The position numbers were made by a program, and so were the translations under genes. A DNA stretch of 64,000 nt, taken from assembly GCF_026571515.1 (NCBI RefSeq), contig NW_026861124.1:62001-126000 (forward strand), read 5' to 3'. Of this stretch, positions 633 to 63,712 are shown piece by piece; the stretch's first letter is position 1, and every line of letters begins with the position of its first letter. The notes beneath the pieces were generated by a model, which did no database searches, was not told the DNA's origin, and worked only from the letters and a program-made list of their open reading frames with translations. This stretch comes from Ruditapes philippinarum (lineage: Eukaryota).

Positions 633-687
633 ACACATTTTCCTTTACTAATTAGTTTCATGCGCAAAACGCAATCTTCAGAAGTGT
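633..687 (-). ncRNA. Second copy of the hammerhead ribozyme (left arm)
   Basis: Reverse complement of the 3390-3445 motif: cctttactaattagtttcatgcgcaaaacgcaatcttcagaagtg. Confidence 0.75.
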
Positions 688-3389: not shown

Positions 3390-3445
3390 ACACTTCTGAA
3401 GATTGCGTTTTGCGCATGAAACTAATTAGTAAAGGAAAATGTGTT
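3390..3445 (+). ncRNA. Minimal type I hammerhead ribozyme in the Penelope pLTR
   Basis: ctt-CTGAAGA-t(tgcg ttttg cgca)t-GAAAC, palindromic ACTAATTAGT helix III, GTA cleavage triplet at 3429-3431, then aag pairing with ctt. Confidence 0.75.
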
Positions 3446-3541
3446 TTTCAATGTGTTGATTGAATATAAATCCATACATACAGCTCTGGGATACCATCGA
3501 GCACTCTGTCTAGGGTTTGTACTGACTTTTAGTGTTATTGG

Positions 3542-4449: not shown

Positions 4450-4563
4450 TTTTACCCAGAGGACATGTGTGGTGATCATCACATTTACTGTACAAGTGAT
4501 CAATACACAGGATGTGTTTGCCGAATAAGAGTAGCTTCCGGAACACCGTGCGGGCATGCCAGG
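4450..4563 (+). CDS. Exon N1, ADAMTS/ADAM-type Cys-rich (disintegrin-like) segment
   Basis: tttcag|...|gtgcgt, 114 nt, phase 0-0; FYPEDMCGDHHIYCTSDQYTGCVCRIRVASGTPCGHAR. Confidence 0.75.
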
Positions 4564-7500
4564 GTGCGTAACTTTACTACAAACATTGCTATTCATGTAC
4601 ATGACATTTTCCTGATCGATTTTTCTCATTAGATCTANNNNNNNNNNNNNNNNNNNNNNNNNNNNNNNNNNNNNNNNNNNNNNNNNNNNNNNNNNNNNNN
4701 NNNNNNNNNNNNNNNNNNNNNNNNNNNNNNNNNNNNNNNNNNNNNNNNNNNNNNNNNNNNNNNNNGATTACTTGTACAAATTTATATTCTGCTAAGCAGT
4801 ATTGATTATTTTCAAACAGTTTTCTTCCATTAGATCAGGGAAACAATATATGTAAAGTTCTTTTCTATGTTTGCCTTACAAGTTGACAAGATTATTGCTA
4901 TTCTGGGTCCTACAGGCGCTTATTTAATTTTGAAGAAAATATGGAAATTACCAAAATATGACAAATTTTCATGAGCTTCAAGAATTTTAGTCGTTGTCAT
5001 AGTAACCATTTGTATTAAAATCAACTAAAAGCAGAAACATTAGATATTACATTAATACATTGATCTTTTTGTTACAGGTTTGCAGAAAGGGCCAATGCGT
5101 ATTTAATACAGGTAAATTTGTTTTAAATAAATAGAACTATTAAACTCACTTGATTAATTAACTTCGCTTTGAAATTTCTGCAGTACACTACCTTTTTATA
5201 TGGTCTAGATGGATTGTAGAATAGTAAATTATGAAGTCACGGTCAGATTACTAATAAAAGAAACAAATGTTAATTTTCTTCTTTTGTAACAATACATTTC
5301 TTATAGGGGAAAGTAATAATTGCCACATGTCAGAAAATGCTTTGATAGTCCATTTTATTTGATTGACCAGAAGACAAAGATTTTGGTTAATACTCCATCC
5401 CTGACCCTGTATCCCAGGTGCTGTCCCAGGGGTCGTGACCATGGTTTCAATTTACTGGTTCATTAAGATCACAGGTATCAAAATTTTACTTCTTGGATAA
5501 TTGCAGATGTTCCACTTGGTGAAAATTGTGAATGTCACTCACAGTGTATTAGTAATGCAGTATGTGACCCGGATACACTTGTCTGTGTTTGTAATGAATG
5601 TTACTACAACAACAGTGGCAATTGTACTGAAAGTAAGTACATCAATATGATTCATTAAATTTTGGTTGAATTTTATGTCAGCTTAACAAATGATTTCAGC
5701 CGCGTCATGACAAAACCAACATAATGGGTTTGCAACCAGCATGGATCCAGACCAGCCTGCACATCCTCGCAGTCTGATCAGGATCCATGCTGTTCGCCAT
5801 GAGTTTCTCTACTTGTTACCTCGACTTTTCGATAAGAATAAGTAGAGCTATTGTAGTCACCCGAGCGTCGGCCTCGGTGTCGGCGTCTGCATCAGCGTAA
5901 CCACTTATGTTAAAGTTTTTGTAATAGTTTAAATATTTTCAAAGTCCATTGACATATGGCTTTGAAACTTTGCACACTTGTTTACCATCATGACACCAAC
6001 CTGTAGACAGGAGGAGGTAACTCTTTCAAGCATTTGACAGAATTATGCCCCTTTTTCGACTTAGAATTTTTGTTAAAGTTTTTGAAAACTTATTTGTATA
6101 GATACCATGTAGATCAAAAATTCACATGGTATTTATTAATTAATTAATTAATTTATTTATTTCCTTTGGGTTTTAATAAATTAAATAAATGAATGAATAA
6201 GTGAATGAATGAATGAATGAATTTAAATGAATGAAAGAATATGATTAATTGATTGATGGATTGATTGATTGACATAATGAATGAATGAATTTCAGAATAT
6301 AAACCTTACGTTTGCTTCATTTTTCAGAAATCCCAAATGGTGGGGAATGTAGTGAAGATGTTGAGTGTAAAGATCCGAACGCATTATGTATAAACGGAAC
6401 ATGCCAGTGTAAACCATGCTATTATAACAACAATGGCGTATGTGTAAAACGTAAGTTAATATAACACAAATTTACTGATGTGGTTATTTGCATGAGATTT
6501 GATATATATATCACATTCTTATACTGTCACAGGAGACAGGGAAGCTCGACTAATAAAATACTGGACGCAATAAGGAAGACAAAACTATGAAAGAAAAATC
6601 AATATACTTCGTAAAGTAAAGCTAAAAATAATATAAAAACATTTTTGTTAAGCAGTTATAACTCGGTGTTCAGCAGTTATAACTCGGTGTTCCATTGAGT
6701 ACCTTATTATCCGTTTACTCATTCCCAAGCTTAAGGTCTGTAGCTTACCCGTTTTAATACTGCAACAGTATTGCCGCATCAGACGAAAGAAAAGATGTTA
6801 AAAAAGTGGCCTTTAAAGTTTTGGAAGCCAGAAATACTCATAAGCAACGGAAATTAAAATAAGCTTTGAGAAAATTGTTTTTGGTCTGGTCTTGTTATCT
6901 TCGAATAAATGCACTGAAAGTTTAGCTTTCTTTAAACATCTGTGAATTATTTTTCGTATGTACGTACAGAAAGCAATATAGGCGAACAGTGCAATTCAAC
7001 AGCCCAATGTAAAGGTGACCGAACTGCTTGTGACACAGAAAGCAATGTTTGCGTTTGTGAGACAGGCTACTTTATTGACGATGAAGCAAATTGCGTTCCA
7101 GGTATAGCTACAGTTCATTTATTTTTGTTTAGTCTAACATACATGTACAATTAACACTTCTGCGTACAGTCGTATCTCTTATTTGTAAAAAGTGTGATTT
7201 TTTTTTCTTGCTGAATTCAGTTAATTCACAAAAAAGAAGCAAGCTCTAACTGATAAGAAACCATGAATAAAATAATTTTTTTGCACCACTTCAACAAGGA
7301 AATTTCAAAACTGTTTATATTTGTATATAGTTGTACAGTGTAAATTAATTTATTTTTCAGTTGTATTTATTTCATCTTTTATTTTTTTTAGTGAACGGAA
7401 CAATCTGTGACCGGTGCATTCAGCAACCAGATTCATGTACACAAGATGGAACAACCTGTTCTGATAGAGGATTTTGTGAATGTTCTAACAACACAGTGGA

Positions 7501-10500
7501 ATTCAATGGAGAATGCTGTGAGTGTCAAAATTATTGATGTAAAACATTCATCTAGAGTGGAAAAATACAAAAAAAATCAAAGCCTCTTATAGTTCCAAGG
7601 GGGTGTGGGGGGTGTGGGGAGGACTGTGGTTGCAATTGACTTGTACATGTAAATTATAGAGTGCAAGCGGTAAGAACAATGTCTCAAATCCACCAGATTT
7701 ATAGGAAACTTGTAAAGGGAAATTTATTGGGACATTATTGTTGCACCCTTATTGTCAGAATCTTTTAATTTATGCCGCCTGAGAACAAATGAAGATAGGG
7801 TTGATAACATGTTATGTAAGTCATCCATAAGTAAGTTTTAATGTGTAATTGTTGAATTTGTAGATGGTACAAGAGTGGGTGAGAGTTGTACAACAGAGGT
7901 AGATACATGTACAGATTACTACGCAGAATGTAACGGAACTGTATGCGACTGCGTTGAAGGCTTCAGCTGGAATGGAACGATTTGTGGTAATGTTATTTAT
8001 AAGCATATAGCTTTGTATCAATTTGTACAGGCATAAAAATACTAATTAGATATTCTTTTATAATTCTATTTTTAAAATGCTTTTGGATATTTTTTTATAT
8101 TATGTTATACCCCCTGTGGTCCGTCCGGGCGAACGAGAGGACGCTTGTTGGGTACCTCCAACACACGAGAGGACACTTGTTGGGTAATTCTATTCATTCC
8201 ATCAGTATTGTTGGGTACTTATATTCTCTTGTTATGTACCTTTAAACAAAAGAAGTACCCAATAAATGACCATTCATAGGAACGTCCGTCCGTCTGTCTG
8301 TCCGTTAGCAATTTGGTTTCCGGAGCATAACTTAAGTTCCATTTGGCCCACAGTATTCAAACTTCATAGGATGATTGCCCATATTGGGTAGAAGACCCCT
8401 ATTGATTTTGGGGTCACAAGGTCAAAGGTCCAGGTCACTATTACCTTAAAACTGAAAATGGTTTCCGGAGCATAACTTAAGTTCCATTTGGCCCACAGTC
8501 TCCAAACTTCACAGCATAATTGTCCATATTGGTTAGAAGACCCCTATTGATTTGGGGTCACAAGGTCAAAGGTCAAGGTCACTATTACCTTAAAACTGAA
8601 AATGGTTTCCTGAGCATAACTTAAGTTCCATTTGGCCCACAGTATTCAAACTTCATAGGATGATTGTCCATATTGGGTAGAAGACCCCTATTGATTTTGG
8701 GGTCACAATGTGAAAGGTCAAGGTCACTATTACCTTAAAACTGAAAATGGTTTCCGGAGCATAGCTTAAGTTCCATTTGGCCAACAGTATTCAAACTTTA
8801 TAGGATGATTGTCCATATTGGGTAGAAGACCCCTATTGATTTTGGGGTCACAAGGTCAAAGGTCAAGGTCACTATTTCCTTAAAACTGAAAACAGTTTCC
8901 GCTAAATAACTTAAGTATTAATTAACCTACAGTTGTAAAATTTTATAGGATGGACAGCTATGTCCAATACATGACCCCTATGGTTTTTAGGGTCATAAGT
9001 TCAAAGGTCAGGGTCACAATGAGCTTTACACTGAAAGTTGTGGTTTCTTGATCATAACTTCAACTTGATGCTGGTGCTTTGAAAACAGCAACTGTATATA
9101 TATGAAGGTTTTCCAGCTATAAAGGAGGATTGCTTTTTGAAGGAGGTAATACTGCATTTAATTCCCATGTCTTACAAATGTTTCATCCTTACTAACAAAA
9201 TAAAAACACTTTTGGGCATATAATGCTCTGCCTAGCGGTGCTCTTGTTTTTCTTGTGAAAGCATATAGTTGTCAAGCTGCACTACTTTCTACTCTTCCAA
9301 TCAGGATCTGTCACCTTTTCGCCTAGTGCCTTCAAAACTAATCACCGATGCCAATTAGTCAAACTTAATACTTGTATAGTTTAGGTCAAGGCCATAGTGA
9401 TATTTTCTTCTTTTTTTCTCACAAACCATGAATTATGGCATGTCATGCATGTATGTTTACCAGACATTTTTTTTTAAACTATTAAACAGAGGGAAGACGA
9501 CATGGTCTCTCCAAAAAATATCTTCACATTGTCTCAGAGACTCTCTTTGACAAGTTTTAATGGTTGGTCTAAATCTAGTCTTTTTGAAATCTATTATTAA
9601 TAGAATAAAATTTAATAGTAACTGAAATTTCTCTTTAGTTTGATGTTTTTCATTGATATATGTCTCATAACCAGACTCATACATGTATTTGTGCATTATT
9701 TCTCACACAACCTTGTACTGAAATTAAATCATTGACTGTTTGTACCATAAAACTGGATATCTTCCTTTCACATAAACTTAAGTCCCTTTAAAACTCATTC
9801 AACCATTCACTGTTAAGAAACATTATATTTACGCAAATTTTCTTTTGAATCAGTTGGACGCACACTGTGTGACCCATGTGACACGTCCCCATCATCATGT
9901 GATGACGAACTTGTATGCAGCCCTGAAACGTATCGCTGTGAATGTCCTAGTGGCCATGTTCAAGTGGGCGATACCTGCTGTAAGATTTTCTTTGTATCGT
10001 TTAATTCTTCTATTTATATAGTTTTTGCTGATTAAAGCATTATTTTTATAATCTTGTTAAATTGAAGTAATGCTGATAAGTTCTAAATAATCAAATTAAA
10101 AAAAAACAGCAACCCATTGGTTTGTGTGTAGTAGTCATAACAGAAAAAATGTAGAAAAAAATTTATATAAACAAATGTAATAACATCTTTATTTTTAATT
10201 TTTTGTTTGTTTTTGTTATAATACAGTATAACCTCCGAGGAGGGGCCCCTTGTAGACCAATTACCTCTTTATATAAAAGCAATATTATTTCTTCACTAAG
10301 TAAACAATTTTACTATATTTTACTGTAGAGCAACACCTCTATGAGCAGCAACTAAAATATTTGTCTCCCAAAGGGTGTAGGTTTTACTGTTGTGTTTTGT
10401 AAATGAAAAATTTTGATTCTGGAATGTTTTTACTCTTAAATCAGTTTTTAGCGAGTTCCGATTTTCTCAACTTTCACTGAATATGTTAATTTGAAATATT

Positions 10501-55500: not shown

Positions 55501-58500
55501 TATCCTTCTACGAAAAATTAGCTAAGGATATAGTTATTTTTGTTTTGAAATGCAGATGGTACACGTGTAACAGAAGGTTGTACAACCAGTCTTGATACTT
55601 GCATTGACGATAATGCTGGGTGCAATGGTACAGTGTGTGACTGTAACGATGGCTATTCCTGGAATGGAACTACATGTGGTAACCTATTATTTTATTAACT
55701 TGCATTTTACATGCAACTATTAAAAAACTTAACCTTTTGCTTTCTACTTTTTGTAGAGTACAGCTTGTGAACAAATTTAACAATTTTATAATGTTTAAAG
55801 CTACGTAACAGGTACGGAATAGTGATCATATATATGTGACATTAATTGATGCCTGATATATGAGAAAGTCACTTTGTTTTGTATGTAAACATTAGTAGTT
55901 TTGAAATAAAATTATATAAACCAGAAACATTGTATTGTACATATCTTTACGTAGTATTACCCTAGCTGATATTTACCTTATTTCTCAGTTGGGACCGATT
56001 TATGTGACCCATGTGACCCGTCGGCATCAACCTGTGCAGCGCCGTTAGTTTGTGGTTCTACAACAGAGGTCTGTGAATGCCCTTCAAATCTAGTACAGAT
56101 TGGAAATAATTGCTGTAAGTATCGCACTGTTTTCTTTATGTATCAATTTAAGATATTTTACATTTGATATTTTACATTCTCCTGATCAATAGAGAAATCA
56201 TTGGATTTGATATCCAAGGTTCGTTGGTTCAAAAATTCTCCATGACAGGGGAACTTATTAACTTTTAAGTCTCAGAAGTCATGTGCAGTTATTTTTATAG
56301 TCAGTCTCTTCCAGAGAAATTGGTAATTACTGGTTAGTTATCCAGGAATGTGACGAAACCAGCTCGATTGACCCAAAATTTGTCAAAGTCAGCATATAAA
56401 AACAAAAAAAAAATAAACAAAACATTACATAGAATGTGCCTTATTTACTTATGTAAATAACAACCTCCTTAGACTTACCCTTTCACTGCAATATGGACAG
56501 CTTTTGCCGTTTCTATAATAATTGTAATAATAATAATAAATTAATAATTATAATAAAAATAATAATAAATATAAAGAAAATTATACCATCGACAATAATT
56601 ATTATTATACTAGCGTATTTGGAAACATATATAATTATTATAATAGTAATAAGAAATAATAATAATAATATAGTAATTTCTTAGAAAACCCTCTGGCAAA
56701 ATGGTGATCAATAATACAATAACACTCTTACATTGTGCAATTAGAACAGACCTTAATTCCAGTGATATTGAAGCAATATGGATAGAAATGAAGCTTGTAA
56801 AACAAAAACCTTTTATTATAGGATATATCTATAGGCCCCCTTCATCACTTAATTCATGGATTGAAGAAATTGAAAAAGTATTAGAAACCTTATACATTGA
56901 AAACAAAGAAATTATTCTCTTTGGCGATTTTAACTACAATTTTATTAACTCTATTTCAATTAATTCAAAATGGAATAATACAATTAGTACATTCAATTTA
57001 AATCAACTTATAACACAACCTACTAGAGTCACACAAACATCCTCAACTATCATTGACCATCTCTACACAAATCAGCCTCAAAATATATGTGATATTAAGA
57101 TCCCAATTCTTTCAATAAGTGACCATTTCCCCATTGTTTTTACCCGTAAAACAAAGGAAAAAATTAAAAATGGCCCATTACATCTTACTATCAATTATAG
57201 ATATTTAAAGCAATTTAATGCAGAACATTTTTTAGCTGATCTAAGTAATCAACCATGGACATTGATTGATGTATTTACTGAACCAGATGATGCTCTTGAC
57301 ACATTTTATGACTTATTTTTAAAAGTTCTTGATTCACATGCACCATATAGACAAAAACGAGTAAAACACAAAAACCAGAATGAATGGTTCACAGATGAAA
57401 TAGCCAATGCAATTCATATGAGAGATTATGCAAAAAAGAAAAGAAAACAGAAGAATTCAAATACTGGAGATCACAAGTTAAAATACTATCACATCAATCA
57501 AAAAAAGACTTCTTTAATCAAGAAATAAATTCACAGAATAAAAATCCTAAAAAATTATGGAAGAACCTAAAAGCACTATCTGGCAAAACTCACAACTTCC
57601 AAACAAACTATATAAATGATGACAATGGAAATCCAGTCTCTGACCCAAAAGAAACTGCAGAAATATTCAATACTTTCTTTTCAAATGTATTTAAAAAAAT
57701 CAGGAAATATTTCAGCACTGAATAAAGCAAATGAATCTATTTTAAAAGAAATGTTAGAAGGTAAAGTTAACTTAGATGTTCCAGAATTTGTGATACCACC
57801 AATTGAACCGGATCATGTTAAAAAAAACATTAGACTCACTTGATGTCAAAAAGGCCACTGGGCTCGATGGAATCAGTGGTAGATTTCTAAAAACTGCATC
57901 TTCTGTAATATATAGACCTTTATCAACTATTATCAATTTAAGTATTCAAACAGGAAAGTTTCCTACCAAATTAAAACAATCAAAAGTTACACCCATTTTT
58001 AAAAAAAAGGACAAAATTCTGATAAAAATAATTACCGACCAATATCTGTACTTCCACTCATTTCTAAAATATTTGAAAAGCATGTATCTGATCATCTAAA
58101 ACAATTTCTAGAAACTCATAAGTTTATTTTTAAGGCCCAGTCAGGATTCAGAACCAAGCACTCTTGTGAAACAGCATTAACAAACATAGTTGACAATTGG
58201 ATAAATGCAATAAATAATGGAGAACTAGTTGGCACAATTTTTCTTGACCTAACCAAAGCATTTGACCTTGTAAACCATAAAATTCTTATTCAGAAACTGC
58301 ATTATTACCATTGTTCTTATCATACAATTAAATGGTTTTCATCATATCTTGCAAACAGAACACAGAAAGTCAGTGTATCAGGTAAACTGTCAGAATCTGC
58401 AGAAGTTATATCAGGTGTTCCCCAAGGATCTGTCCTTGGGCCCCTGCTTTTCATTATATACATCAATGATCTCCCACTTCATTTAGAGACCTCAGAAATA

Positions 58501-61500
58501 GACATGTTTGCAGATGACACCACACTTACAGCATCAGGACATTCACCACAAGAACTACATGATAAACTTCAAACCAACCTCAAACATGTAAACAAATGGT
58601 GCATACAAAATGCAATGGTCTTAAATACACAGAAAACAAAGGCAATGCACCTTACATCAAATAATACACAGCTTCATTTACCACCTTTACACCTTCAAGA
58701 TCAAATGATCCAATTTTCTGAAACCGAAAAGTTACTAGGTGTTTTTGTCGATAGTAAACTAAAATGGAAAATCCAAATAGAAATGATACTTAAAAAATGC
58801 AACTCTCAGTTATACCTACTTCTCAGAATCAAGCAATACCTAGACTTACATGCAAGAAAACTATTCTTTAACTCATACATCTTACCACACCTAGATTATT
58901 GCTGTACTATCTGGGGCAATTGCAGCAATGATCTGATCAATGAAATCATAAAATTCCAAAAAAGAGCAGCAAGAATAATTCTAGATAAAAGTTTCGATGC
59001 ACCCTCCAGTGATTTGTTTAAAGAACTAAATTGGATGAGATTTGATGACAGAATGATATACAAAAAAGCAATCATAATGTTTAAATCTATCAATGACCTA
59101 CCATATCCACAATACATGCAAAGTAAATTCCAATTTGTTTACCAAAAACATGAGCGCAACTTAAGATCTACAAATAGTTTCAGACCTAGCTGTTCCACGA
59201 CCTAAGAAAAAGAATTTTTCAGAAAATCCCTAGTATACTCTGGCCCTAAATTATGGAATAATATCCCTCTTAACATAAGAAAATCGAAAAACAGTTTCAG
59301 GAATTTCAAGCTTCATATCTATCCTGGCATTTTTCATCATTAAATTAATCATTTTTATAACAAAATTAGAATCTTATCATTTTGATGTACCAACTAAAAC
59401 ATATTTCCCACTTTGTTTAATTTGATATGTACTTCTTTGACATGTTTTATGCTATGAATGGACTGTAAATTATTAACATGTATTTCTTGTTCTGATAATT
59501 TCAATGTACATTGTACTACAATGTTGTTGCAATTATTTCTGTTATATTGTAGTTGTATATATTGTAAATTATGTTTTTTCTTAGAGGCCCACATGGAAGA
59601 TTGGGAAACCAAATGTGTAGCCTCGATAAATAAAGCCTTTACTTACTTACTTACTTACTTACACTCTGACAGCGAAAGGGTTAATATAGTTTCCAGGATG
59701 ATGTCTGTGATCTTAAAAAAAAAAAAAAATATTATGACCACCATAGCATGCATTGTTTTCTCTTTATTAGACTGCTAAATTCAGTAGTTTAAACCCCGCT
59801 TAAGAGAGATTCTACAAAAACATTTTCTTATCTATGCAAGTGATAGATAGCTGTCTGTTTAAAATGTTGAGTACATTTTATTTAAATTGTTGTTAAAGGA
59901 ATGAAATTTCTTTTCTTGTAGACCTTTTTCCATTCTTGTTGTTGTAAATGTTTGGTATGATATAAGAAATAGTACACATTTTGCTCAGGGCTATTGGCAT
60001 TATAATAACCTCCCAGACAGCTGCAAAAATATAACAGATCTTGCAATAAACAAATATAATTTTAAAAGAAAATTTTTATTTTACATCACTGGCTTTCCAT
60101 ACCTCATAAAGGTGTTGTAAAAGACTTTCAGCATTAGACATTGTTGTTTTTCATTTTTTTGTTAACTAACGAAGATTGTGAATTCTTTGCAGATGGAACA
60201 CTTGTCACGGAAAGTTGTACAACATCTACGGACACATGTATTGATGATTACGCTGCCTGTAACGGAACTATTTGCAACTGTATCGCCGGATATCATTGGA
60301 ATGGCTCTATATGTAGTAAGTTTGATATATAGAGAATAATGAATGTTTGTAGGTTCAATACTGAATTTATTGAATGAGTATACTGAGATGATTAACAAAT
60401 ATACATTACAGTACCGGGATATGTGTTTCCAGTATAGATGAGAAAATGTATAAATATGTTTTTTAATAATAAAAAAAATATTTGCAAGAATGAATGTAAT
60501 GGAAAAGAAACAATTTGATAAACTATCTGAAATTTATCATGTATAAGAATACAAGAAAATATACATGGATAAACATCCCTAATTATCATGGACTTATAGA
60601 CTTACTCTTGAATTAAGAATATTTTGGGGTTTTCTCAGCTAATCTGTAGGTACAAACAAACTTTTACAGTTACATGCAGCTTCGAAACTAAGCGGAACAG
60701 ATTGACAAATCTATTGTAACAGGTATAGCACTGTGAAGCTGTAACAATAAGTTTGACTGGGAAAACACACATTTGCCAAGTTCCATATAACATCTAGTTT
60801 ATAAGGAAAATATAAACACCTTGTAATGTATGATTAATGAAAAATGTGGTCATGATAATTTATAATTTTTCAGCTGGCGAAAACTTATGTGATCCTTGTG
60901 ACCCTTCAAATCCAACATGCGCGTCGGGTTCAGTTTGCAGCTCAAGTACGTACAGATGTACATGTCCGCCTGATCAAGTACAGATCGGGAATGATTGTTG
61001 TAAGTACTGAGTCAAAATGTGTAAGATAAAACAAAAATTATTATAATACCTCCTTCAGAAGACATTTATGTTATTAGTTTAAAAGATATTTACAGGTAAT
61101 ATGGCCCTATATTAACAGTTGTTTTCATATATAACCTGAGCTGCTAGGTGAAGGTTATATTGCAAACTGTCTATATATGGCCATATTAAACCTGCCAAGA
61201 ATCTGTATAACAAATTTATAATAGAGCAAACTTCCTTTTTAGAGGAAAAAATTAGATTTCTTCATCAATTGACAGCACAGCAGTGTATATAAAAGTATAT
61301 AATACTAAAAAAACAGAATAGGGATCAACAAGGCAAAGGCAGCATAATATAGAAATAATTCTAAGTATGTCAATCTTTAGACATTTAACTAGTACATTGA
61401 GATATGACTTCAAATTTTGTTCTCTGTCATACGATATGGTAATTTACTCAAAAGCATCAGCTGTGAGATATAATATTATTACCAATCATAGGGTCCTGTT

Positions 61501-63712
61501 CTTCAACTGCTTTGTAGGAATAAAAAATATATTGTATTATTCAAAGTCATATTGTACTTTTTCCTCCAGATGGTACAATGGTTGGTGATCCATGCACGAC
61601 ACCGGACACATGTATACAAGATAATGCAGGTTGTAACGGCACCATCTGCGACTGTCTTCCAGGATTTTCACATAATGGCACTGTGTGTGGTTAGTAGTGC
61701 TAATGAAATTAATAATGTTATTTGAAAAAGGTTTTGATTTTTGTATATGTGTGATACTGATATTGCAGTTTTTGCATGTTGGAATATAAGGGGCAATACT
61801 GACATACCAGAGAGGCTGGTCAACCTGTACAAAGTCATAATAGTAATAAATAATAATCAATGGTTGACTGCTAAACTGTTTTAAGTCCTTCTTTATATCA
61901 TATAAGTTACTGCAGTTTTGCGATCAACCCACCATAAAACCATGCAGTCTGACTTGTCTTGAAACAGTTGGGTGTTAAATTTTAGCTTTTGTTTTACTAA
62001 AATTCCTAACATCATCATATAAAACTATATCCGATGAAATATTTTATATAGACTTTATAAATGGTAAAAGTATATTAATCTTATGGTCAATTCTAGAGGG
62101 AGTTGTCACATAGGATGTGTATGTTATTTACCACACTTGAGTATTGTATGTAAACAGAATTAATTTTTCTGAACAAAATATTATGCTGCTATTTTAAAAT
62201 ATCATTAAGCAATGATTTTCACCTTGTGCATGCACCATTCACCCTGAAAAAGAAATATACAAACAATTATTTCTTTTCATACAGGTATTTTGGCATTATT
62301 CTTTTTCAAAATTTAGACAATAGTTTGCAAACTACAGGCAGCAGATATACAGCTTTATAAACGTTAACATGACCATGTACAGTTCTTAAGTCAAATTTGA
62401 TCAAGTTCCACATCAAAAGTGTGAAAATAATGATATATTGAAAGATCAAAATTGATAAATTGAAAGATCAAAAATGAGATATTGTAAAATCAAAAATGAG
62501 ATATTGAAAAAATCAAAAATGGTATATTGAAAGATCAAAACTCTTCATGCAATATTCTTGAATAAAGCAAAAACTTTTCATAAATTGCATATTAAATTTT
62601 TACCAATCAAAGGATTAGTGTTACCATTTCCTGTATATTGCTATACTGTATGAGGTTATATCATTCTGTTTCCAGTGTTCTTGAATAATTAATATTAACT
62701 TGACAATTAGATTGCATAAAAATGTATTAATTCTTGTTGCAAAGGAAAAAATTTCTGATTTTTATTTTCATTGTGACTTAAATCATTTCTGGGATGCCTT
62801 TGTGACGGTCACCTAATTTCCAGGACAGTCCTGGACGTCCAAGACATTATGGCATGCATGCATATTTATTGGAAAATTTAAGTAGCCTACAGTGTTGAAT
62901 TTGCAGTGTATAATAAAAAATACATTTTTTATCTTTTTAAGTTGGAACTGGGCTTTGTGACCCTTGTGATACATCAGTATTAAATTGTGAGGACCCCTTG
63001 GAGTGCAGTTCTACCACATACAGGTGTGAATGTCCCTCTGGTACAGTACAGATAGATGGCGCCTGCTGTAAGTACATTTTATTAGTGGGACAATTGTAGC
63101 AACCCAATGAATCAATTAGTATTCACTTTCGCTGAATGCATTGATGTGCGATTATAAATTTGCATGGTGATTGTGATTATAAGTTTGCGTGAATAAGTCT
63201 GCATGATTTTGTGAATGAATCGGTAAAAAAAATTTTGTTTACATACATTGTTTAGACAGTGATGATAATGAGTTACAGGACGGAATATTTCAATTTTACA
63301 GGCACATGTTAGAACACAAGTTATAATATAAGTTTATTGCCAATCTATTTTTAGGTCCCTAATAAAGTCAAAATAAATCTAAATTATTGAAAATCATGGT
63401 CAAACTATACTCAGTAAAAACCTTTTCACTTGGGAAATTGTGAATTTTTTTCTTACTCTATAAATCAAAACATAGGGTATATTTAAATAGTGTAACGTTT
63501 TGATTATATAATTTTTATTATTTTTAGAAAAATTTTGGGTATATTTTAGTAGTGTAATATTTCAATTATATCATTTTCATTATTTTTAGATGGAACACTT
63601 ATTGGGGAGACTTGTACAAGTAGTTACGATGTATGTATTGATGATAATGCTGGATGTAATGGGACAATATGCAACTGTTTGCCTGGGTATTTCTTTAACG
63701 GCACTATATGTG
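4450..63712 (+). CDS. Partial giant multi-exon gene: ADAMTS/ADAM-type Cys-rich module followed by at least 59 tandem EGF/EB-like Cys-rich repeats (about 2,500 aa in window; 5' and 3' ends outside window)
   Basis: 58 clean AG...GT exons with compatible phases plus 3 garbled exon remnants. Repeat exons are 120-132 nt, phase 1-1, with conserved Cys spacing and no stops. No start, signal peptide or terminal exon seen. Confidence 0.9.
4638..4765. other. Assembly gap
   Basis: Run of N. Confidence 0.99.
5078..5111 (+). CDS. Exon N2 (34 nt), completes the GTxCG...C..G.CV motif
   Basis: ttacag|...|gtaaat, phase 0-1; VCRKGQCVFNT; bridges N1 in frame to the phase-1 array. Confidence 0.72.
5507..5632 (+). 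CDS. Lead EGF/EB-like exon L1
   Basis: ttgcag|126 nt|gtaagt; DVPLGENCECHSQCISNAVCDPDTLVCVCNECYYNNSGNCTE. Confidence 0.85.
5698..5817. mobile_element. Half copy of palindromic TGAGCCGCG MITE, interrupted by a HINE
   Basis: agccgcgtcatgacaaaaccaac...ggatccagaccagcctgc matches the left half of the full copies. Confidence 0.8.
5818..6095 (+). mobile_element. Truncated Helentron-associated (HINE/DINE-like) element
   Basis: ctcgacttttcg...gagctattgtagtcac plus (GGCGTC)n and one core repeat; same family as 12382-13640. Confidence 0.7.
6328..6450 (+). CDS. Lead EGF/EB-like exon L2
   Basis: tttcag|123 nt|gtaagt; KIPNGGECSEDVECKDPNALCINGTCQCKPCYYNNNGVCVK. Confidence 0.85.
6970..7101 (+). CDS. Lead EGF/EB-like exon L3
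   Basis: gtacag|132 nt|gtatag; QSNIGEQCNSTAQCKGDRTACDTESNVCVCETGYFIDDEANCVP. Confidence 0.82.
7392..7517 (+). CDS. Repeat exon A1 (divergent)
   Basis: 126 nt; VNGTICDRCIQQPDSCTQDGTTCSDRGFCECSNNTVEFNGEC. Confidence 0.85.
7864..7986 (+). CDS. Repeat exon B1
   Basis: 123 nt; YGTRVGESCTTEVDTCTDYYAECNGTVCDCVEGFSWNGTIC. Confidence 0.88.
8106..9248 (+). mobile_element. HINE-like element with about 5 internal ~145-bp tandem repeats
   Basis: (CCGT/CTGT)n microsatellite; ggtttcc unit anchor at 8315, 8460, 8604, 8749; 3' end ...gctcttgttt. Confidence 0.75.
9854..9979 (+). CDS. Repeat exon A2
   Basis: 126 nt; VGRTLCDPCDTSPSSCDDELVCSPETYRCECPSGHVQVGDTC. Confidence 0.88.
10733..10855 (+). CDS. Repeat exon B2
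   Basis: 123 nt; YGRFVTEPCTISLDTCVDDNAECNGTVCVCIANFVWNGSIC. Confidence 0.88.
10975..11277 (+). mobile_element. Degenerate short HINE
   Basis: gaagaataaggagagctattgtaatcac start and gctgtccttctgattgctcttgtt end, as in the 12382 family. Confidence 0.55.
11446..11571 (+). CDS. Repeat exon A3
   Basis: 126 nt; VGDSLCDPCDPAITTCDSSLVCSSDTYRCECPPGFVQIGDAC. Confidence 0.88.
11937..12025. mobile_element. Internally deleted TGAGCCGCG MITE
   Basis: tgagccacgtcacgaca...tgtcgtgacgtgactca termini. Confidence 0.75.
12157..13974 (+). mobile_element. Outer HINE-like element containing a nested HINE
   Basis: Subterminal IR atgtccccac/gtgggggcat, (CCGT)n, internal repeats, 3' hairpin gtgtcc-ttt-ggacac followed by agttctagttt. 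Confidence 0.8.
12382..13640 (+). mobile_element. Inner HINE-like element with 163-bp tandem repeats
   Basis: Subterminal IR ctcgactattc/gaatagtcgag, (GGCGTC)n, about 4 near-identical 163-bp units plus degenerate ones, 3' hairpin gctgtc-ctacc-gacagc; inserted in a T run. Confidence 0.85.
14073..14195 (+). CDS. Repeat exon B3
   Basis: 123 nt; YGTVVGESCTTLIDTCIDDNAACNGTVCDCLPNWVWNGSIC. Confidence 0.88.
15057..15182 (+). CDS. Repeat exon A4
   Basis: 126 nt; LGPDLCDPCDTSTTSCDSDLVCNPTTYRCECPTDEVQYDDEC. Confidence 0.88.
15582..15704 (+). CDS. Repeat exon B4
   Basis: 123 nt; YGTHVGDSCTTSLNTCIDDNAGCNGTICDCLPGFYFNGTIC. Confidence 0.88.
16209..16334 (+). CDS. Repeat exon A5
   Basis: 126 nt; VGEQLCDPCDPASSTCSNTLVCSSDRYRCECPTGFVQIGDLC. 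Confidence 0.88.
18028..18161 (+). other. Garbled remnant of repeat exon B5 (probably assembly error)
   Basis: ttttcag-tgggagaaattt... resembles the B23 start (atgggagaaatattgg); ...tgtattgcaggctctcttggaaaggaaactcat resembles CIAGxxWNGTH; frame not intact. Confidence 0.55.
19709..19828 (+). other. Garbled remnant of repeat exon A6
   Basis: gacccctgtgatccc (DPCDP), tgtagttcc, gtgaatgccc (ECP) and ggggacgcc recognisable among indels. Confidence 0.65.
20219..20341 (+). CDS. Repeat exon B6
   Basis: 123 nt; xGTRVGESCTTSLNTCIDDYAVCNGTVCDCKETYVWNGTHC. Confidence 0.87.
20823..20947 (+). other. Garbled remnant of repeat exon A7
   Basis: ttttag|atggacagaatctatgtgacccatgtgat (GQNLCDPCD), then indels; gaatgtccc...gaggtacagatt...gatgaatgc. 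Confidence 0.75.
21073..21560. repeat. (GAT)n-type microsatellite spanning the N gap at 21190-21437
   Basis: gatgatgac/gataat repeats on both sides of the Ns. Confidence 0.9.
21783..21905 (+). CDS. Repeat exon B7
   Basis: 123 nt; xGRLVTERCTTATDTCIDDNAECNGTVCDCVDGFTFNGSVC. Confidence 0.87.
22344..22469 (+). CDS. Repeat exon A8
   Basis: 126 nt; LGTDLCDPCDPTANTCNVDLVCNSDTYRCECPTNQVQIGDSC. Confidence 0.88.
23349..23471 (+). CDS. Repeat exon B8
   Basis: 123 nt; YGRLVGEDCTTSLDTCIDDNAVCNGTICDCEEGFHWNGTHC. Confidence 0.88.
24166..24291 (+). CDS. Repeat exon A9
   Basis: 126 nt; GGENLCDPCDPSSSFCDDPLVCSSDTYRCECPPGFVQIGDNC. Confidence 0.88.
24878..25113. mobile_element. Palindromic TGAGCCGCG-family MITE, diverged full copy
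   Basis: ~100-bp TIRs containing cagcatggatccagaccagcctgc. Confidence 0.85.
25410..25532 (+). CDS. Repeat exon B9
   Basis: 123 nt; YGTRVGESCLASLDTCIDDNAGCNGTVCDCNDGYFWNGTIC. Confidence 0.88.
26006..26128 (+). CDS. Repeat exon A10
   Basis: 123 nt (one codon shorter); VGTSICSPCDSSNPCDSDLECNPSTYRCECPADRVQIGNEC. Confidence 0.88.
26784..26906 (+). CDS. Repeat exon B10
   Basis: 123 nt; YGTRVTEPCTSDVDTCIDCNADCNGTVCDCVTGYTWNGSVC. Confidence 0.88.
27217..28167. mobile_element. Non-autonomous pogo/Tc1-mariner-like element
   Basis: TIRs CAGTTCAACTTTGTTCGCTAGAACTCGGA / TCCGAGTTCGAGCGAACGAAGTTCGACTG with TA on both sides; no transposase ORF. Confidence 0.8.
28628..28753 (+). CDS. Repeat exon A11
   Basis: 126 nt; LGTNLCDPCDLATTTCDDDLICNPNTYTCECPTDHVQIGDSC. 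Confidence 0.88.
28867..29057. mobile_element. TGAGCCGCG MITE, internally deleted
   Basis: tgagctgtgtcatgacaaaacc...ttttgtcgtgacgcggctca. Confidence 0.85.
29088..29210 (+). CDS. Repeat exon B11
   Basis: 123 nt; YGTQVTESCTTTLDTCTNDFADCNGTVCDCISGYSWNGSRC. Confidence 0.88.
29642..29767 (+). CDS. Repeat exon A12
   Basis: 126 nt; VGGNLCDPCDPLTVACDDGLECSTGTYRCECPDDEVQIGDNC. Confidence 0.88.
30782..30904 (+). CDS. Repeat exon B12 (3' end could extend into the donor minisatellite)
   Basis: 123 nt; YGTHVGDDCTTSLDTCIDDHAECNGTVCDCIEDWVWNGTHC. Confidence 0.85.
30890..31985 (+). repeat. 27-bp minisatellite (~40 units) derived from the B12 exon/intron junction
   Basis: Consensus TCTGGATCTCATTGTG|GTAAGTCTATG; begins with the exon end ggaactcattgtg|gtaagtct. 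Confidence 0.95.
32283..32408 (+). CDS. Repeat exon A13
   Basis: 126 nt; VGPNLCDPCDPLTESCDTGLVCSSTTYRCECPSGQVQIGDNC. Confidence 0.88.
33089..33211 (+). CDS. Repeat exon B13
   Basis: 123 nt; YGTRVGENCLSSHDTCIDDNAGCNGTVCVCDDDHVWNGTIC. Confidence 0.88.
33391..35357 (+). mobile_element. HINE-like element with about 11-12 internal ~145-bp repeats
   Basis: 5' agctcaccagag...ggtgagct, 3' ctggtaagc, hairpin agggcca-tca-tggccct followed by cttgttt; two alternating unit variants. Confidence 0.85.
35688..35813 (+). CDS. Repeat exon A14
   Basis: 126 nt; VGPNLCSNCDPNTDSCDTGLICNPVTYRCECPTGQVQYDDDC. Confidence 0.88.
36168..36290 (+). CDS. Repeat exon B14
   Basis: 123 nt; YGTHIGDSCTTSLNTCIDDNAGCNGTICDCLPGSTFNGTFC. 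Confidence 0.88.
37086..37349. repeat. 27-bp minisatellite, about 10 units
   Basis: ctttcctgacataaatataaccctcga repeats. Confidence 0.95.
37484..37609 (+). CDS. Repeat exon A15
   Basis: 126 nt; VGTQLCEPCDPNDSTCEQPLQCSSDTYRCECPPGHVQYDDEC. Confidence 0.88.
38283..38405 (+). CDS. Repeat exon B15
   Basis: 123 nt; YGRFVSEPCTSSLNTCIDDNAICNGTVCTCRDGWVYNGTIC. Confidence 0.88.
38556..38909. mobile_element. TTAA-flanked non-autonomous element (Kolobok-like); related ends near 4300 and 35902
   Basis: ttaaaaggaactccagtga ... tcagtggagtcagtttaa. Confidence 0.5.
38906..39513. mobile_element. TTAA-flanked non-autonomous element (piggyBac-like ends)
   Basis: ttaaccttttccc ... ggggtaaaaggttaa. Confidence 0.5.
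40029..40154 (+). CDS. Repeat exon A16
   Basis: 126 nt; VGPGLCDPCDPLTESCDSSLQCNPNTYRCECPTGQVQVGDTC. Confidence 0.88.
40520..40695 (-). mobile_element. tRNA-derived SINE fragment
   Basis: Homologous to 50130-50281 (aaccaaccagtactaagcaa...aaacaatgg...acagggttt). Confidence 0.55.
40809..40931 (+). CDS. Repeat exon B16
   Basis: 123 nt; VGTRVTDSCTTVINTCIDDYAECNGTVCNCVDGFVYNGSRC. Confidence 0.87.
41388..41513 (+). CDS. Repeat exon A17
   Basis: 126 nt; LGMELCEPCDPDTETCASNLVCSSDTYRCECPSNLVQVGDQC. Confidence 0.88.
41856..42092. mobile_element. Palindromic TGAGCCGCG MITE, full copy, TA TSD
   Basis: TA-TGAGCCGCGTCACGACAAAACC...GGTTTTGTTGTGACGCGGCTCA-TA. Confidence 0.9.
42868..42990 (+). CDS. Repeat exon B17
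   Basis: 123 nt; VGTRVGEECVTETDTCIDDNAECNDTICDCVDGFTWTGLLC. Confidence 0.85.
43629..43751 (+). CDS. Repeat exon A18 (divergent, 6 Cys)
   Basis: 123 nt; AGSIINDPCSPENPCSGVLVCNVNTSKCACPSNLVQIGDQC. Confidence 0.87.
44034..44156 (+). CDS. Repeat exon B18
   Basis: 123 nt; YGTLIGETCTTSLDTCIDDFAECNGTVCDCQDGYEYNGTFC. Confidence 0.88.
44185..44347. mobile_element. TGAGCCGCG MITE, 3'-truncated
   Basis: Left TIR, core and start of the right TIR. Confidence 0.8.
44516..44641 (+). CDS. Repeat exon A19
   Basis: 126 nt; LGTNLCDPCDPLASTCRSDLVCSSDTYRCECPDDEVQVGDNC. Confidence 0.88.
45499..45621 (+). CDS. Repeat exon B19
   Basis: 123 nt; YGTHVGDDCTTSPDTCIDDHAACNGTVCDCISCYSWNGTRC. Confidence 0.86.
45668..46028. 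mobile_element. TTAA-flanked non-autonomous element (Kolobok-like); paralogues near 16440 and 39510-39880
   Basis: ttaaaggcacattatgcttcagaaa ... tttctgaggcataatgggtctttta; shared internal gtagtattttgacttcc and ggccaatgagtaactttt. Confidence 0.6.
46267..47499 (+). mobile_element. HINE-like element with about 7 internal 156-bp repeats
   Basis: Subterminal IR tgtgtcgccttg/caaggcgacaca, (GGCGTC)-like microsatellite, hairpin tccg...cgga followed by gttctagttt. Confidence 0.85.
47697..47822 (+). CDS. Repeat exon A20
   Basis: 126 nt; HGQLLCDSCDPMSSTCDSSLVCNANTYRCECPTDEVQIGDDC. Confidence 0.88.
47848..48357. repeat. 18-19-bp minisatellite, about 27 units
   Basis: aatcattgataacaagaa(a) repeats. Confidence 0.95.
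48634..48756 (+). CDS. Repeat exon B20
   Basis: 123 nt; YGTHVGDRCTNVVNTCIDDYALCNGTICDCMAGTTWNGSIC. Confidence 0.88.
49251..49373 (+). CDS. Repeat exon A21
   Basis: 123 nt; VGSDLCDPCDSSDSTCAPNFVCGSSSRCECPDDEVQIGDKC. Confidence 0.88.
49640..49879. mobile_element. Palindromic TGAGCCGCG MITE, full copy, TA TSD
   Basis: TA-TGAGCCGCGTCATGAC...CATGACGCGGCTCA-TA. Confidence 0.9.
50085..50281 (-). mobile_element. tRNA-derived SINE
   Basis: Minus strand GGTGGCTGAGTGGTTAA (A box), GGGTTCAAACCC (B box), then a CORE-like ccctgagcaagaaacttta segment. Confidence 0.65.
50345..50467 (+). CDS. Repeat exon B21
   Basis: 123 nt; YGTRVTEACTTTLNTCVDCFAECNGTVCDCKDGYYWNGTRC. Confidence 0.87.
50983..51108 (+). CDS. 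Repeat exon A22
   Basis: 126 nt; NGENLCDPCDPSAPTCRSDLRCSPTTYRCECLTNEVQISDVC. Confidence 0.88.
51543..51665 (+). CDS. Repeat exon B22
   Basis: 123 nt; YGTHVTESCTTTTDTCTDDYAVCNGTICNCIEGFYWNGSLC. Confidence 0.88.
52016..52141 (+). CDS. Repeat exon A23
   Basis: 126 nt; VGEQLCEPCDPSDSTCVSPLVCSSTNDRCECPPGFVQYQSAC. Confidence 0.88.
52607..52729 (+). CDS. Repeat exon B23
   Basis: 123 nt; YGRNIGESCTTLLDTCIDDNAACNGTICNCVAGFYFNGTIC. Confidence 0.88.
53094..53219 (+). CDS. Repeat exon A24
   Basis: 126 nt; VGTQLCDQCDSSVISCSGDLQCSSDTYRCECPSDEVQIGDDC. Confidence 0.88.
53721..53843 (+). CDS. Repeat exon B24
   Basis: 123 nt; YGTHVGDDCTTNTDTCIDDYAVCNGTVCNCMAGYSWNGTRC. Confidence 0.88.
54591..54716 (+). 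CDS. Repeat exon A25
   Basis: 126 nt; VGSNLCDPCDPASSTCDSDLQCSTCTYRCECPDGFVQNSDIC. Confidence 0.87.
55556..55678 (+). CDS. Repeat exon B25
   Basis: 123 nt; YGTRVTEGCTTSLDTCIDDNAGCNGTVCDCNDGYSWNGTTC. Confidence 0.88.
55989..56114 (+). CDS. Repeat exon A26
   Basis: 126 nt; VGTDLCDPCDPSASTCAAPLVCGSTTEVCECPSNLVQIGNNC. Confidence 0.88.
56729..59660 (+). mobile_element. 5'-truncated, frameshifted non-LTR retrotransposon (CR1/L2-group LINE) ORF2: APE endonuclease + RT
   Basis: GYIYRPP, GDFN, IIDH, SDH (EN); LDLTKAFDLV, GVPQGSVLGPLLF, MFADDT (RT); AATAAA at 59629 followed by a (TTAC)n tail; candidate TSD ACACTCT at 56722 and 59661. Confidence 0.92.
60193..60315 (+). CDS. Repeat exon B26
   Basis: 123 nt; YGTLVTESCTTSTDTCIDDYAACNGTICNCIAGYHWNGSIC. 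Confidence 0.88.
60874..60999 (+). CDS. Repeat exon A27
   Basis: 126 nt; TGENLCDPCDPSNPTCASGSVCSSSTYRCTCPPDQVQIGNDC. Confidence 0.88.
61570..61689 (+). CDS. Repeat exon B27
   Basis: 120 nt; YGTMVGDPCTTPDTCIQDNAGCNGTICDCLPGFSHNGTVC. Confidence 0.87.
62430..62542. repeat. ~22-bp minisatellite, about 5 units
   Basis: gatatattgaaagatcaaaaat variants. Confidence 0.8.
62942..63067 (+). CDS. Repeat exon A28
   Basis: 126 nt; VGTGLCDPCDTSVLNCEDPLECSSTTYRCECPSGTVQIDGAC. Confidence 0.88.
63590..63712 (+). CDS. Repeat exon B28 (gene continues beyond window)
   Basis: 123 nt; YGTLIGETCTSSYDVCIDDNAGCNGTICNCLPGYFFNGTIC, donor gttagt. Confidence 0.87.

Follow-up and report, generated by a model that had tools for sequence, protein, structure and literature searches.

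What kind of gene distributes small cysteine-rich exons of two alternating types over most of a 64,000-nucleotide stretch of the Ruditapes philippinarum genome (hereafter the window)? The best reading is a Dumpy-like, acidic secreted structural glycoprotein with a pseudoprotease head, an EB/EGF stalk, a putative VWA tail and possible cross-links through spare cysteines.

Gene identity and general features of the window

The first ten exons of the window are identical over 383/383 residues to the R. philippinarum RefSeq model XP_060553466.1, the match beginning at residue 180 of that protein (exon 4450-4563). The gene begins upstream of 5507, where a first-pass annotation had placed the start of the array, and also upstream of the window. 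Clean exons from 4450 to 63712 contribute about 2,371 codons, and the earlier proposals of an extracellular protein and of a single reading frame of at least 2,400 aa extending beyond the window are both supported. The features are as follows.

4450..4563, + strand: disintegrin-like exon (Pfam ADAMTS_CR_2, 40 bits, cut-off 27.3), 114 nt, phase 0-0, identical to XP_060553466.1
5078..5111, + strand: last disintegrin-like exon, 34 nt, phase 0-1
5507..5632, + strand: lead EB-like module 1, 8 Cys
6328..6450, + strand: lead EB module 2, 7 Cys, Pfam EB 30.1 bits (above cut-off)
6970..7101, + strand: lead EB module 3, 6 Cys, Pfam EB 24.8 bits (above cut-off)
7392..7517, + strand: first A-type module, divergent, 7 Cys, at the same position in Mercenaria models
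within 7864..63712, + strand: 27 B exons from the profile search (6 Cys, two N-x-S/T sequons)
B exons 1-9, + strand: 7864-7986, 10733-10855, 14073-14195, 15582-15704, 20219-20341, 21783-21905, 23349-23471, 25410-25532, 26784-26906
B exons 10-18, + strand: 29088-29210, 30782-30904, 33089-33211, 36168-36290, 38283-38405, 40809-40931, 42868-42990, 44034-44156, 45499-45621
B exons 19-27, + strand: 48634-48756, 50345-50467, 51543-51665, 52607-52729, 53721-53843, 55556-55678, 60193-60315, 61570-61689, 63590-63712
within 9854..63067, + strand: 25 clean A exons from the profile search (7 Cys, the spare one at position 5)
clean A exons 1-9, + strand: 9854-9979, 11446-11571, 15057-15182, 16209-16334, 22344-22469, 24166-24291, 26006-26128, 28628-28753, 29642-29767
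clean A exons 10-17, + strand: 32283-32408, 35688-35813, 37484-37609, 40029-40154, 41388-41513, 43629-43751, 44516-44641, 47697-47822
clean A exons 18-25, + strand: 49251-49373, 50983-51108, 52016-52141, 53094-53219, 54591-54716, 55989-56114, 60874-60999, 62942-63067
19713..19828 (profile-match coordinates), + strand: garbled A copy, frameshifted, in low-quality sequence, 22.4 bits
20816..20945 (profile-match coordinates), + strand: garbled A copy, frameshifted, in low-quality sequence, 37.7 bits
16335..19712, no strand: homopolymer-inflated stretch in which the expected B exon is not findable, the sole break in alternation

RefSeq already carries the protein in pieces, under names (matrilin-2-like, mua-3-like, fibropellin-1-like, notch-like, ced-1-like) that reflect generic domain matches. 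These misnamed fragments had been overlooked. So had the disintegrin-like exon at 4450-4563 and the pseudoprotease head, the two sequons of B and the odd cysteine of A, and the probable VWA tail. The matches obtained in our searches are automatic models only, none of them a characterised protein, and the literature searched contained no study of this protein. Notch combines a calcium-binding EGF array with LNR, a transmembrane segment and ankyrin repeats; the models contain no LNR, ankyrin or transmembrane part and start with an M12B domain, and the notch-like name is rejected, as is a prokaryotic or viral origin. A keyword look at two Mercenaria fluid proteome supplements returned nothing attributable to this gene: their sole “EB module” protein, a plasma protein of 146 aa, could not be linked to it. 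The window is best explained as the middle of a single venerid gene, the product of which would be a very long secreted structural glycoprotein, probably more than 3,500 aa in full; taken as a whole, with head, tail and cross-links, this account has an even chance of being right.

Integrity and alternation of the array

A nucleotide profile search (>20 bits) recovered 27 A and 27 B copies, every one on the + strand. The description of the clean exons as free of stops and frameshifts is borne out, 52 of the 54 being bounded by AG..GT, in phase 1-1 and 120-126 nt long with whole-codon length changes; the exon picker demanded stop-free exons, so that “no stop” is partly by construction and the informative part is that just 2/54 fail. 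AG and GT are present in 52/52 clean exons, with GTAAGT in 26. The three lead modules described earlier were found, plus the A-like exon at 7392. The cysteine spacings are as first written, but the stated cysteine count does not hold in every module (A43629 has six, A54591 eight and three B modules seven).

The modules form 53 runs in 54, and by our own arithmetic only 54 of 1.9e15 orderings are as alternating, so the alternation is not due to chance. Tandem duplication of an AB unit would nevertheless yield it without any selection for alternation, and no higher-order period was detected among the modules (lags 1-3, permutation p 0.13-0.86). The alternation is not without exception, as had been claimed, since no convincing B separates A16209 from the next module, A~19713, and the announced 28 pairs are 28 A modules (7392 included) for 27 B. 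This break lies at 16-21 kb, where homopolymer bases number 144 per kb (50 +/- 22 elsewhere), in a stretch that adjoins the N gap at 21190-21437, one of two in the window; a homopolymer-compressed search of this stretch for the missing B gave a best match at E 0.018, among noise. Given the homopolymer excess and the adjoining gap, the frameshifts of the copies at ~19713 and ~20816 most likely stem from sequence of raw-read quality and not from decay.

The 59 introns (282-4078 nt, median 638) are mostly dissimilar, as first noted, their common pieces spanning only 28-377 nt and corresponding mostly to one palindromic MITE-like element in 7 introns. All junction types (AA, AB, BA and BB) are in frame without a stop. 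Module order, as known from gene models, is ABAAABABAAAAAAB... in Mercenaria and AAAABA in Mactra.

Selection and repeat evolution

The earlier proposal of purifying selection on an 83-aa AB unit stands as regards the selection (mean pN 0.27 and 0.24 versus pS 0.78 and 0.76), pN exceeding pS in 0/231 A pairs and 0/325 B pairs; the obligate character of the AB unit is weakened by the A-only runs of the Mercenaria and Mactra models. Synonymous sites are near saturation across the array copies, with four-fold site differences of 0.70 and 0.65 for a saturation expectation of 0.72.

Window A modules share 59% identity among themselves, 57% with XP_060560578.1 and 42% with two homogenised paralogues. 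The family offers a clean contrast in repeat evolution between this array, old and unhomogenised (~60% identity, silent sites saturated), and paralogues in which the same modules are homogenised at 84-98%. Module trees rested on 40-41 columns, were mostly unresolved (the B tree being a quick one) and were used just for the homogenised clades.

Module chemistry and predicted fold

The assignment of the modules to the EB/EGF-like type is confirmed: Pfam EB was listed in 11/11 tested, two of them above cut-off alone, whole models score 43-76 bits (cut-off 24.3), and the best Atlas match of the AB region is an EB cluster (0.87). A spare seventh cysteine occurs in 24/25 clean window A modules, 18/20 in Mercenaria and 5/5 in Mactra. 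N-glycosylation sequons are concentrated in B (53 in 27 B, two per module, versus 2 in 25 A), and the array is strongly acidic, with 335 D+E for 54 K+R in 2,101 residues, a net charge of about -13 per 100 residues. Positions A-D9, A-Q36 and B-D17 show little or no variation. Position B18, usually Asp, is Cys in 10/10 B modules of XP_060567783.1, 4/7 of XP_060551066.1 and 2/27 in the window, and the gain in these two paralogues suggests that the spare A cysteine faces B18 within the chain. In both, the last Cys18 B sits after a Cys5 A and before an A without Cys5, an arrangement that probably reflects one shared event.

An AlphaFold2 model of XP_060553466.1 (9 sequences) presents the repeats as beta-hairpin modules (pLDDT ~57-79) and the head below 50; its pTM is 0.24 and it therefore gives no support to a rod shape. 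EGF disulfides follow the pattern 1-3, 2-4, 5-6, with which the predicted hairpins of the repeats appear compatible. Foldseek on this model was uninformative, with three matches at E <=0.001 and TM <=0.15 (NELL EGF arrays and generic elongated repeats), and a two-copy complex prediction of residues 396-646, in which the alignment was unused, scored 0.00 with no contacts and is evidence neither way.

A probable pseudoprotease head

An M12B domain is present in XP_060553466.1 and its Mercenaria orthologue, its exons lying upstream of the window, and is preceded by a prodomain with a furin-type site; N-termini are hydrophobic in the Mactra head and in the VWA-headed paralogue. A 4-head profile matched ADAMTS-5 (2rjq) at E 8.5e-10 over the catalytic and disintegrin-like parts, ADAMTS accounting for 12/14 among the PDB matches listed. 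In the Atlas the head reaches 0.96 to Reprolysin/ADAMTS_CR_2 clusters, and Pfam ADAMTS_CR_2, partly encoded by window 4450-5111, is found in 4/4 heads (best E 1.7e-11), with Pfam Reprolysin unmatched in every head. No TSP1 follows the disintegrin-like domain at E 0.1 in the full models, the EB modules coming directly.

The reference zinc motif is HEXXHXXGXX(H/D) (PMC4349717). It was read in the Mercenaria and Ruditapes models, the Mactra model being without that stretch, and the alignment gives AHEIGHLLGLSHD for ADAMTS-5, AHALLRTIGARDD for Mercenaria and AHGLLRFLGAKRD for Ruditapes. Glu is replaced by Ala or Gly, the second His by Arg and the third by Asp or Arg; Asp is permitted at the third zinc position; both models nonetheless lack Glu and the second His. 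An active protease is rejected on the loss of these two residues, and, judged from sequence, the M12B domain is very probably a pseudoprotease that would be unable to cut.

Further head relatives were limited to two proteins per search, all members of this gene family, and the Mercenaria contig with the head model carries another that is head-like. A phmmer search of the whole Mercenaria protein against PDB gave 0 matches, and the AlphaFold2 model of the mature head (4 sequences) had a pLDDT of 36.7, too low for use. The literature searched described no ADAMTS-type pseudoprotease borne on a giant repeat stalk.

A putative VWA tail

This gene's own end lies outside the window, but in the related arrays whose C-terminus is known, the last domain is a Pfam VWA (4/4), bearing D-x-S-x-S and TDG motifs and, in all four, a MIDAS; from these we infer its link to the present gene. 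The 3' end would comprise terminal EB modules, a cysteine-rich linker and the VWA domain; a C-terminal hydrophobic stretch is absent in 7/7 models. The Mercenaria head and tail models each lie on a contig of length 86,514,381. No single database model unites an M12B head with a VWA tail and XP_060551066.1 is a VWA-headed paralogue, so that the pairing is by similarity alone. The last four modules of the Mercenaria tail are 64% identical to XP_060560578.1 versus 49-51% to homogenised paralogues, and its VWA part is 42% identical to the former versus 56% to a homogenised paralogue; no window module is more than 80% identical to XP_060560578.1. The A modules of the window are closer to this candidate tail model (57%) than to the two homogenised paralogues (42%). 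On these comparisons, one gene probably carries both head and tail.

Proposed mechanism and alternatives

The protein would comprise a signal peptide, a prodomain with a furin-type site, a dead M12B domain, a disintegrin-like domain, 3-4 EB modules and at least 55 A/B modules, ahead of the putative tail. The head, unable to cut as judged from its residues, may persist as a binding module. The six cysteines would fold each module into a small beta-hairpin unit, as the model supports, and the chain could form an extended stalk of about 140 nm for 55 modules, a length of 2.5 nm per module being taken. Glycans and charge would make this stalk hydrated, calcium-binding and protease-resistant. The unpartnered A cysteine could then form inter-chain disulfides about every 83 residues, producing a ladder or mesh that the VWA end may attach to other matrix proteins via its MIDAS site. 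Such cross-linking through spare A cysteines has as much for it as against it; a structural matrix role of the protein is likely. We further infer that the most likely product is a fibre or gel outside the cells, covering an epithelium as mucus, attachment material or mantle matrix.

Alternatively, the spare cysteine may act within the chain: A-Cys5 would pack against B18 and, together with conserved acidic residues, bind a metal, or else form a disulfide in those modules that have Cys at B18. Each AB pair would then behave as one rigid super-module, and the protein would be a spacer rod, either monomeric or assembled through non-covalent contacts. This tentative alternative draws on the Cys18 counts, on the flanking of the last Cys18 B in both paralogues and on the near invariance of A-D9, A-Q36 and B-D17, and would account for an alternation persisting to synonymous saturation. 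Against it, the A-only runs of the Mercenaria and Mactra models retain Cys5 although they offer no following B, and the disulfide form is impossible in 25/27 window B modules, which are without Cys18. A combined and rather unlikely possibility is that of clam-specific “thiol-ladder” giants, with a non-cutting ADAMTS capture head, one thiol and two glycans per 83 residues, a VWA foot and an Asp/Cys switch at B18 that caps the thiol intrachain and tunes cross-links. Capping by Cys18 would there concern every B of one paralogue, 4/7 of another and 2/27 in the window. If true, the result would be a marine gel or fibre programmed genetically and set by redox state, with stiffness graded among the paralogues.

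Venerid shells are aragonite, and a shell-matrix or extrapallial scaffold binding calcium and organising mineral, compatible with either cysteine model, is an improbable alternative. It fits the net negative charge, the place of VWA in the bivalve shell “basic tool kit” and the reprolysin domains of oyster and scallop shell proteomes (PMC5854119), as well as the raised VWA and EGF genes in Mercenaria extrapallial fluid (PMC8902148). However, the all-aragonite shell of Mya truncata is without EGF domains (PMC5854119), none of the models has a chitin-binding domain, and the 146-aa fluid protein has no link to the gene.

It is more doubtful that the phase 1-1 exons form a combinatorial cassette or a cluster of shorter genes, giving many isoforms or alleles that vary in length and content, as in diversified recognition or gamete-surface proteins. 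All junction types are usable, B is skipped in homologue models, Mercenaria has its second head-like model, and XP_060553466.1, as known from its gene model, fits the window for four array modules and then parts company, 4/5 of the following modules having no close window match (best 72-75%). However, no second head or tail exon occurs across the 64 kb, splice sites are canonical throughout and modules keep a stable position in some matches (one 98% identical to A47697). There is also no sign of diversifying selection, since pN is never above pS in pairs and is about equal to or below it at variable positions.

Finally, an assembly artefact or decayed satellite, to which the low-quality 16-21 kb sequence and the N gaps might point, is refuted by purifying selection, by saturated silent sites in modules ~60% identical in protein (which are not collapsed or duplicated reads) and by the 383/383 identity to an independent RefSeq model, with 52/54 modules intact and orthologues in two more genera.

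Significance

Under the preferred reading of a secreted matrix glycoprotein, scattered RefSeq fragments in farmed clams become one family with testable parts. The periodic spare cysteine and its natural capping variant offer an experimental route to marine matrix cross-linking, with a possible use in biomaterials. No new biochemistry is revealed yet, giant EGF-repeat matrix proteins being a known class.

Comparison with known systems

The prodomain with a furin-type site, the M12B and the disintegrin-like domains are shared with ADAMTS and ADAMTS-like reprolysins, from which the clam protein differs by a zinc motif destroyed in both readable species and by an EB array in place of TSP1 or spacer. 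Its modules match those of EB-module proteins (Pfam PF01683, automatically named “PQN-25-like”) but are of two diverged alternating types, A conserving an odd cysteine and B bearing its sequons in pairs. Matrilins and C. elegans MUA-3 are matrix or adhesive proteins combining VWA and EGF domains, the same domain vocabulary as the clam family.

In teneurins, odd-cysteine EGF repeats dimerise covalently (PMC4956664), a precedent for inter-chain cross-linking that is not claimed as homology: those are membrane receptors in which 2/8 repeats miss one cysteine, whereas the clam array has one extra in every second module. Scallop byssal proteins such as Sbp9 contain 1-49 EGF-like domains, and others VWA with DxSxS and TDG; their EGFs have six cysteines and Calx-beta inserts, and no pseudoprotease head appears among those described in PMC9168380.

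The closest parallel is Dumpy of Drosophila, presented in PMC2930355 as a giant secreted matrix protein of hundreds of alternating small EGF-DPY-EGF cysteine modules, which cross-links through a terminal domain, evolves in concert over part of its length and is alternatively spliced. In the Atlas, Dumpy clusters resemble the AB region weakly (0.82-0.83, a lead only). No Dumpy_DPY Pfam match was obtained in modules or models, the clam modules being of 41-42 aa versus 21 aa for DPY (PMC2930355), and no model has a DPY, ZP or transmembrane part, the related arrays ending in VWA rather than in a Dumpy-type ZP and transmembrane end. Both are giant secreted matrix proteins of alternating small cysteine modules, but in the clam both modules are EB/EGF-like, each is encoded by one exon, and the array follows a pseudoprotease head and probably precedes a VWA tail, an architecture that is new, but within a known kind.

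Gene identity and the pseudoprotease head

Ten exons at the 5' side of the window correspond to the RefSeq model XP_060553466.1 of Ruditapes philippinarum over 383/383 residues, which identifies both the species and the gene. The first-pass annotation had set its start at 5507, but two further coding exons lie upstream of this position.

Exons located 5' of the 54 array copies
4450-4563, forward strand: upstream coding exon
5078-5111, forward strand: upstream coding exon
5507, forward strand: exon preceding the array
6328, forward strand: exon preceding the array
6970, forward strand: exon preceding the array
7392, forward strand: A-like exon preceding the array

Searching with the alignment of the A modules among proteins of 73-2000 aa (7,191 candidates, proteins above 2,000 aa being outside this scope) gave 18 matches, the five long ones being Ruditapes and Mercenaria RefSeq models. 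The RefSeq names of the fragments are generic.

XP_060553466.1 and Mercenaria XP_053406285.1 continue upstream into an ADAMTS-like domain, the head. Its profile matches ADAMTS-5 (E 8.5e-10) across the catalytic and disintegrin-like parts, the Atlas collection of protein clusters scores it 0.96 to reprolysin clusters, and Pfam ADAMTS_CR_2 is found in 4/4 heads, with no match to Pfam Reprolysin in them. The metzincin zinc consensus is HEXXHXXGXX(H/D) (PMC4349717). The ADAMTS-5 motif AHEIGHLLGLSHD aligns with AHALLRTIGARDD and AHGLLRFLGAKRD in the Mercenaria and Ruditapes head models, neither of which retains the catalytic Glu or the second His, the third His being replaced by Asp or Arg; judged from these residues, the head is a predicted pseudoprotease. 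The Mactra model KAL4231509.1 misses the stretch of the zinc motif and is thus silent on it. It displays a hydrophobic N-terminus and furin-type sites.

Organization of the module array

Nucleotide profiles run against both strands retrieved 27 A and 27 B copies scoring more than 20 bits, every one of them on the forward strand, 52 of the 54 being stop-free exons with canonical AG..GT borders in phase 1-1. The order is BABABABAaBaB(AB)n, with 53 runs in 54 modules, so that the alternation announced previously largely holds, but not as 28 strict pairs: there are 27 B, one A-A step and two frameshifted copies (about 19713 and about 20816). The A-A step and both frameshifts fall inside 16-21 kb, a region adjoining an N gap and containing 144 homopolymer bases per kb vs 50 +/- 22 elsewhere (maximum 108). 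This region is probably of poor sequence quality and hides a B copy, though none was found there. The introns have only short interspersed repeats in common.

The claim that selection acts on an AB unit is weakened by the A runs of the Mercenaria (ABAAABABAAAAAABABAB..., including four near-identical consecutive A) and Mactra (AAAABA) orders, which come from gene models where B exons may have been skipped; AB is not clearly an obligate unit. Beyond A11446 (A exon starting at 11446), XP_060553466.1 has five more modules, one of which matches B15582 (39/40), the other four matching nothing in the window above 75%. This divergence may come from another haplotype, from an assembly that jumps to modules outside the window, or from exon skipping.

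Selection and age of the array

Pairwise pN/pS was calculated on 22/25 clean A exons (126 nt) and 26/27 B exons (123 nt). Mean pS is 0.78 (A) and 0.76 (B) and mean pN 0.27 and 0.24, pN exceeding pS in 0/231 A pairs and 0/325 B pairs (pairs not being independent), which bears out the purifying selection proposed earlier. Differences at four-fold sites reach 0.70 (A) and 0.65 (B), compared with 0.72 expected at saturation, B15582/B36168 is the only recent pair (92% identical DNA), and module similarity is independent of distance along the array. These observations, together with pN/pS, indicate an old, translated array that has not been homogenised, whereas paralogue arrays are homogenised (84-98% within).

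Module anatomy

Module A has seven cysteines, six aligned to the EB/EGF core and a spare one at position 5, present in 24/25 clean window copies, 18/20 in Mercenaria and 5/5 in Mactra, and absent from the last A in 4/4 tail-bearing arrays. Module B has six cysteines and two sequons (53 in 27 B vs 2 in 25 A). The 2,101 array residues include 335 acidic vs 54 basic ones. AlphaFold2 predicts beta-hairpin units (pLDDT about 57-79) and leaves the overall shape unfixed (pTM 0.24).

C-terminal end and related arrays

The B profile gave 42 matches at E 0.001 among 1.84 billion representatives. All four known arrays with a C-terminus (XP_060560578.1, XP_060567783.1 and XP_060551066.1 of Ruditapes, XP_045156813.2 of Mercenaria) close with EB modules, then a linker containing 16-17 cysteines, then a VWA domain that carries the motifs D-x-S-x-S and TDG; a hydrophobic C-terminus is absent from all of them. 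Window A modules share 57% identity with those of XP_060560578.1, 59% among themselves and 42% with the two other Ruditapes paralogues, and the Mercenaria head and tail models are each on a contig of equal length. From these observations, the window gene probably ends in a VWA domain as XP_060560578.1 does, although no single model covers head and tail, the head of one paralogue is a VWA domain instead, and the tails give a mixed picture of relationships.

The family extends over Veneridae and Mactridae, and Mya arenaria has a related array of three modules; the Dreissena and chiton matches are generic EB-rich proteins. The Mya array (WAR03901.1) is homogenised, with modules A, B and B', and the sixth cysteine is apparently missing in both B types, as a real variant or through a gene-model error at the donor site. 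One paralogue, whose homogenised BA array is flanked on each side by VWA, has two RefSeq isoforms, XP_060551066.1 and XP_060551065.1, and a single BA unit is the exact difference between them.

Repeats and mobile elements

A 27-bp minisatellite (30892-31981, 40.6 copies) derives from B exon 30782-30904's 3' end and its splice donor. GGTAAGT occurs 30 times in the minisatellite, 21 of these sharing the phase of the true donor, and the repeat frame is open to 31269 with Gly-Lys-Ser-Met-Ser-Gly-Ser-His-Cys-like repeats; it could act as a decoy-donor array allowing insertion of a Cys/His peptide. At 10507-10536, some 230 nt upstream of the B exon 10733, the acceptor and initial codons of this exon are partly duplicated, giving a possible decoy acceptor.

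An upstream intron carries a 2.9-kb near-perfect palindrome (601-3476) built from a broken element that resembles a reverse transcriptase and, by eye, Penelope, and in which 110 aa tested did not match Pfam RT; it is either a natural inverted pair or a fold-back artefact. The longest intron harbors a frameshifted LINE (56677-59205, forward, gene-sense strand) that has an endonuclease and a reverse transcriptase, the latter matching Pfam RVT_1 (E 8.8e-35). One palindromic element resembling a MITE, at most about 250 bp long, recurs in seven introns (those starting at 5633, 11572, 24292, 28754, 41514, 44157, 49374), and intronic satellites of 145-163 bp occur at 8314, 12471, 33576 and 46418.

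Proposed function and comparison with known systems

We give about even chances to a secreted structural glycoprotein, in which the head would bind without cutting, a long, acidic, glycosylated and possibly rod-shaped stalk would be joined to neighboring chains by A-Cys5 disulfides, and a VWA foot would complete a gel or fibre on the surface of an epithelium. The main rival, that A-Cys5 is used inside its own chain against position 18 of B, is distinctly less probable; Cys is found at B18 in 10/10 modules of XP_060567783.1, 4/7 of XP_060551066.1 and 2/27 in the window. Both window Cys18 B follow an A one codon short (A and B together at 26006-26906 and at 49251-50467; only three such A exist), through shared ancestry or covariation. 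A shell-matrix role, in venerids an aragonite shell, seems unlikely. Combinatorial isoforms or several genes are more doubtful still, even if every junction type (AA, AB, BA, BB) is in frame and stop-free.

The gene is real, functional and uncharacterised. The six family accessions are unmentioned in the open-access library searched, and no title or opening of an abstract was found there with this architecture; clam proteome tables elsewhere may list the protein under different identifiers. What raises it above routine is its pseudoprotease head, together with a spare cysteine that recurs periodically and has a natural capping variant; this interest is lessened by a strict alternation that is incomplete in the window and unkept in orthologue models.

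Its architecture is new within a class already known, that of giant EGF-repeat matrix proteins. Drosophila Dumpy (PMC2930355) is likewise a giant matrix protein with alternating modules, but the models of the clam gene have no DPY, ZP or transmembrane part and it is not a Dumpy member. ADAMTS-like reprolysins account for part of its ancestry, though it does not belong among these enzymes, and teneurin (PMC4956664) offers a precedent for cross-links by odd-cysteine EGF modules.
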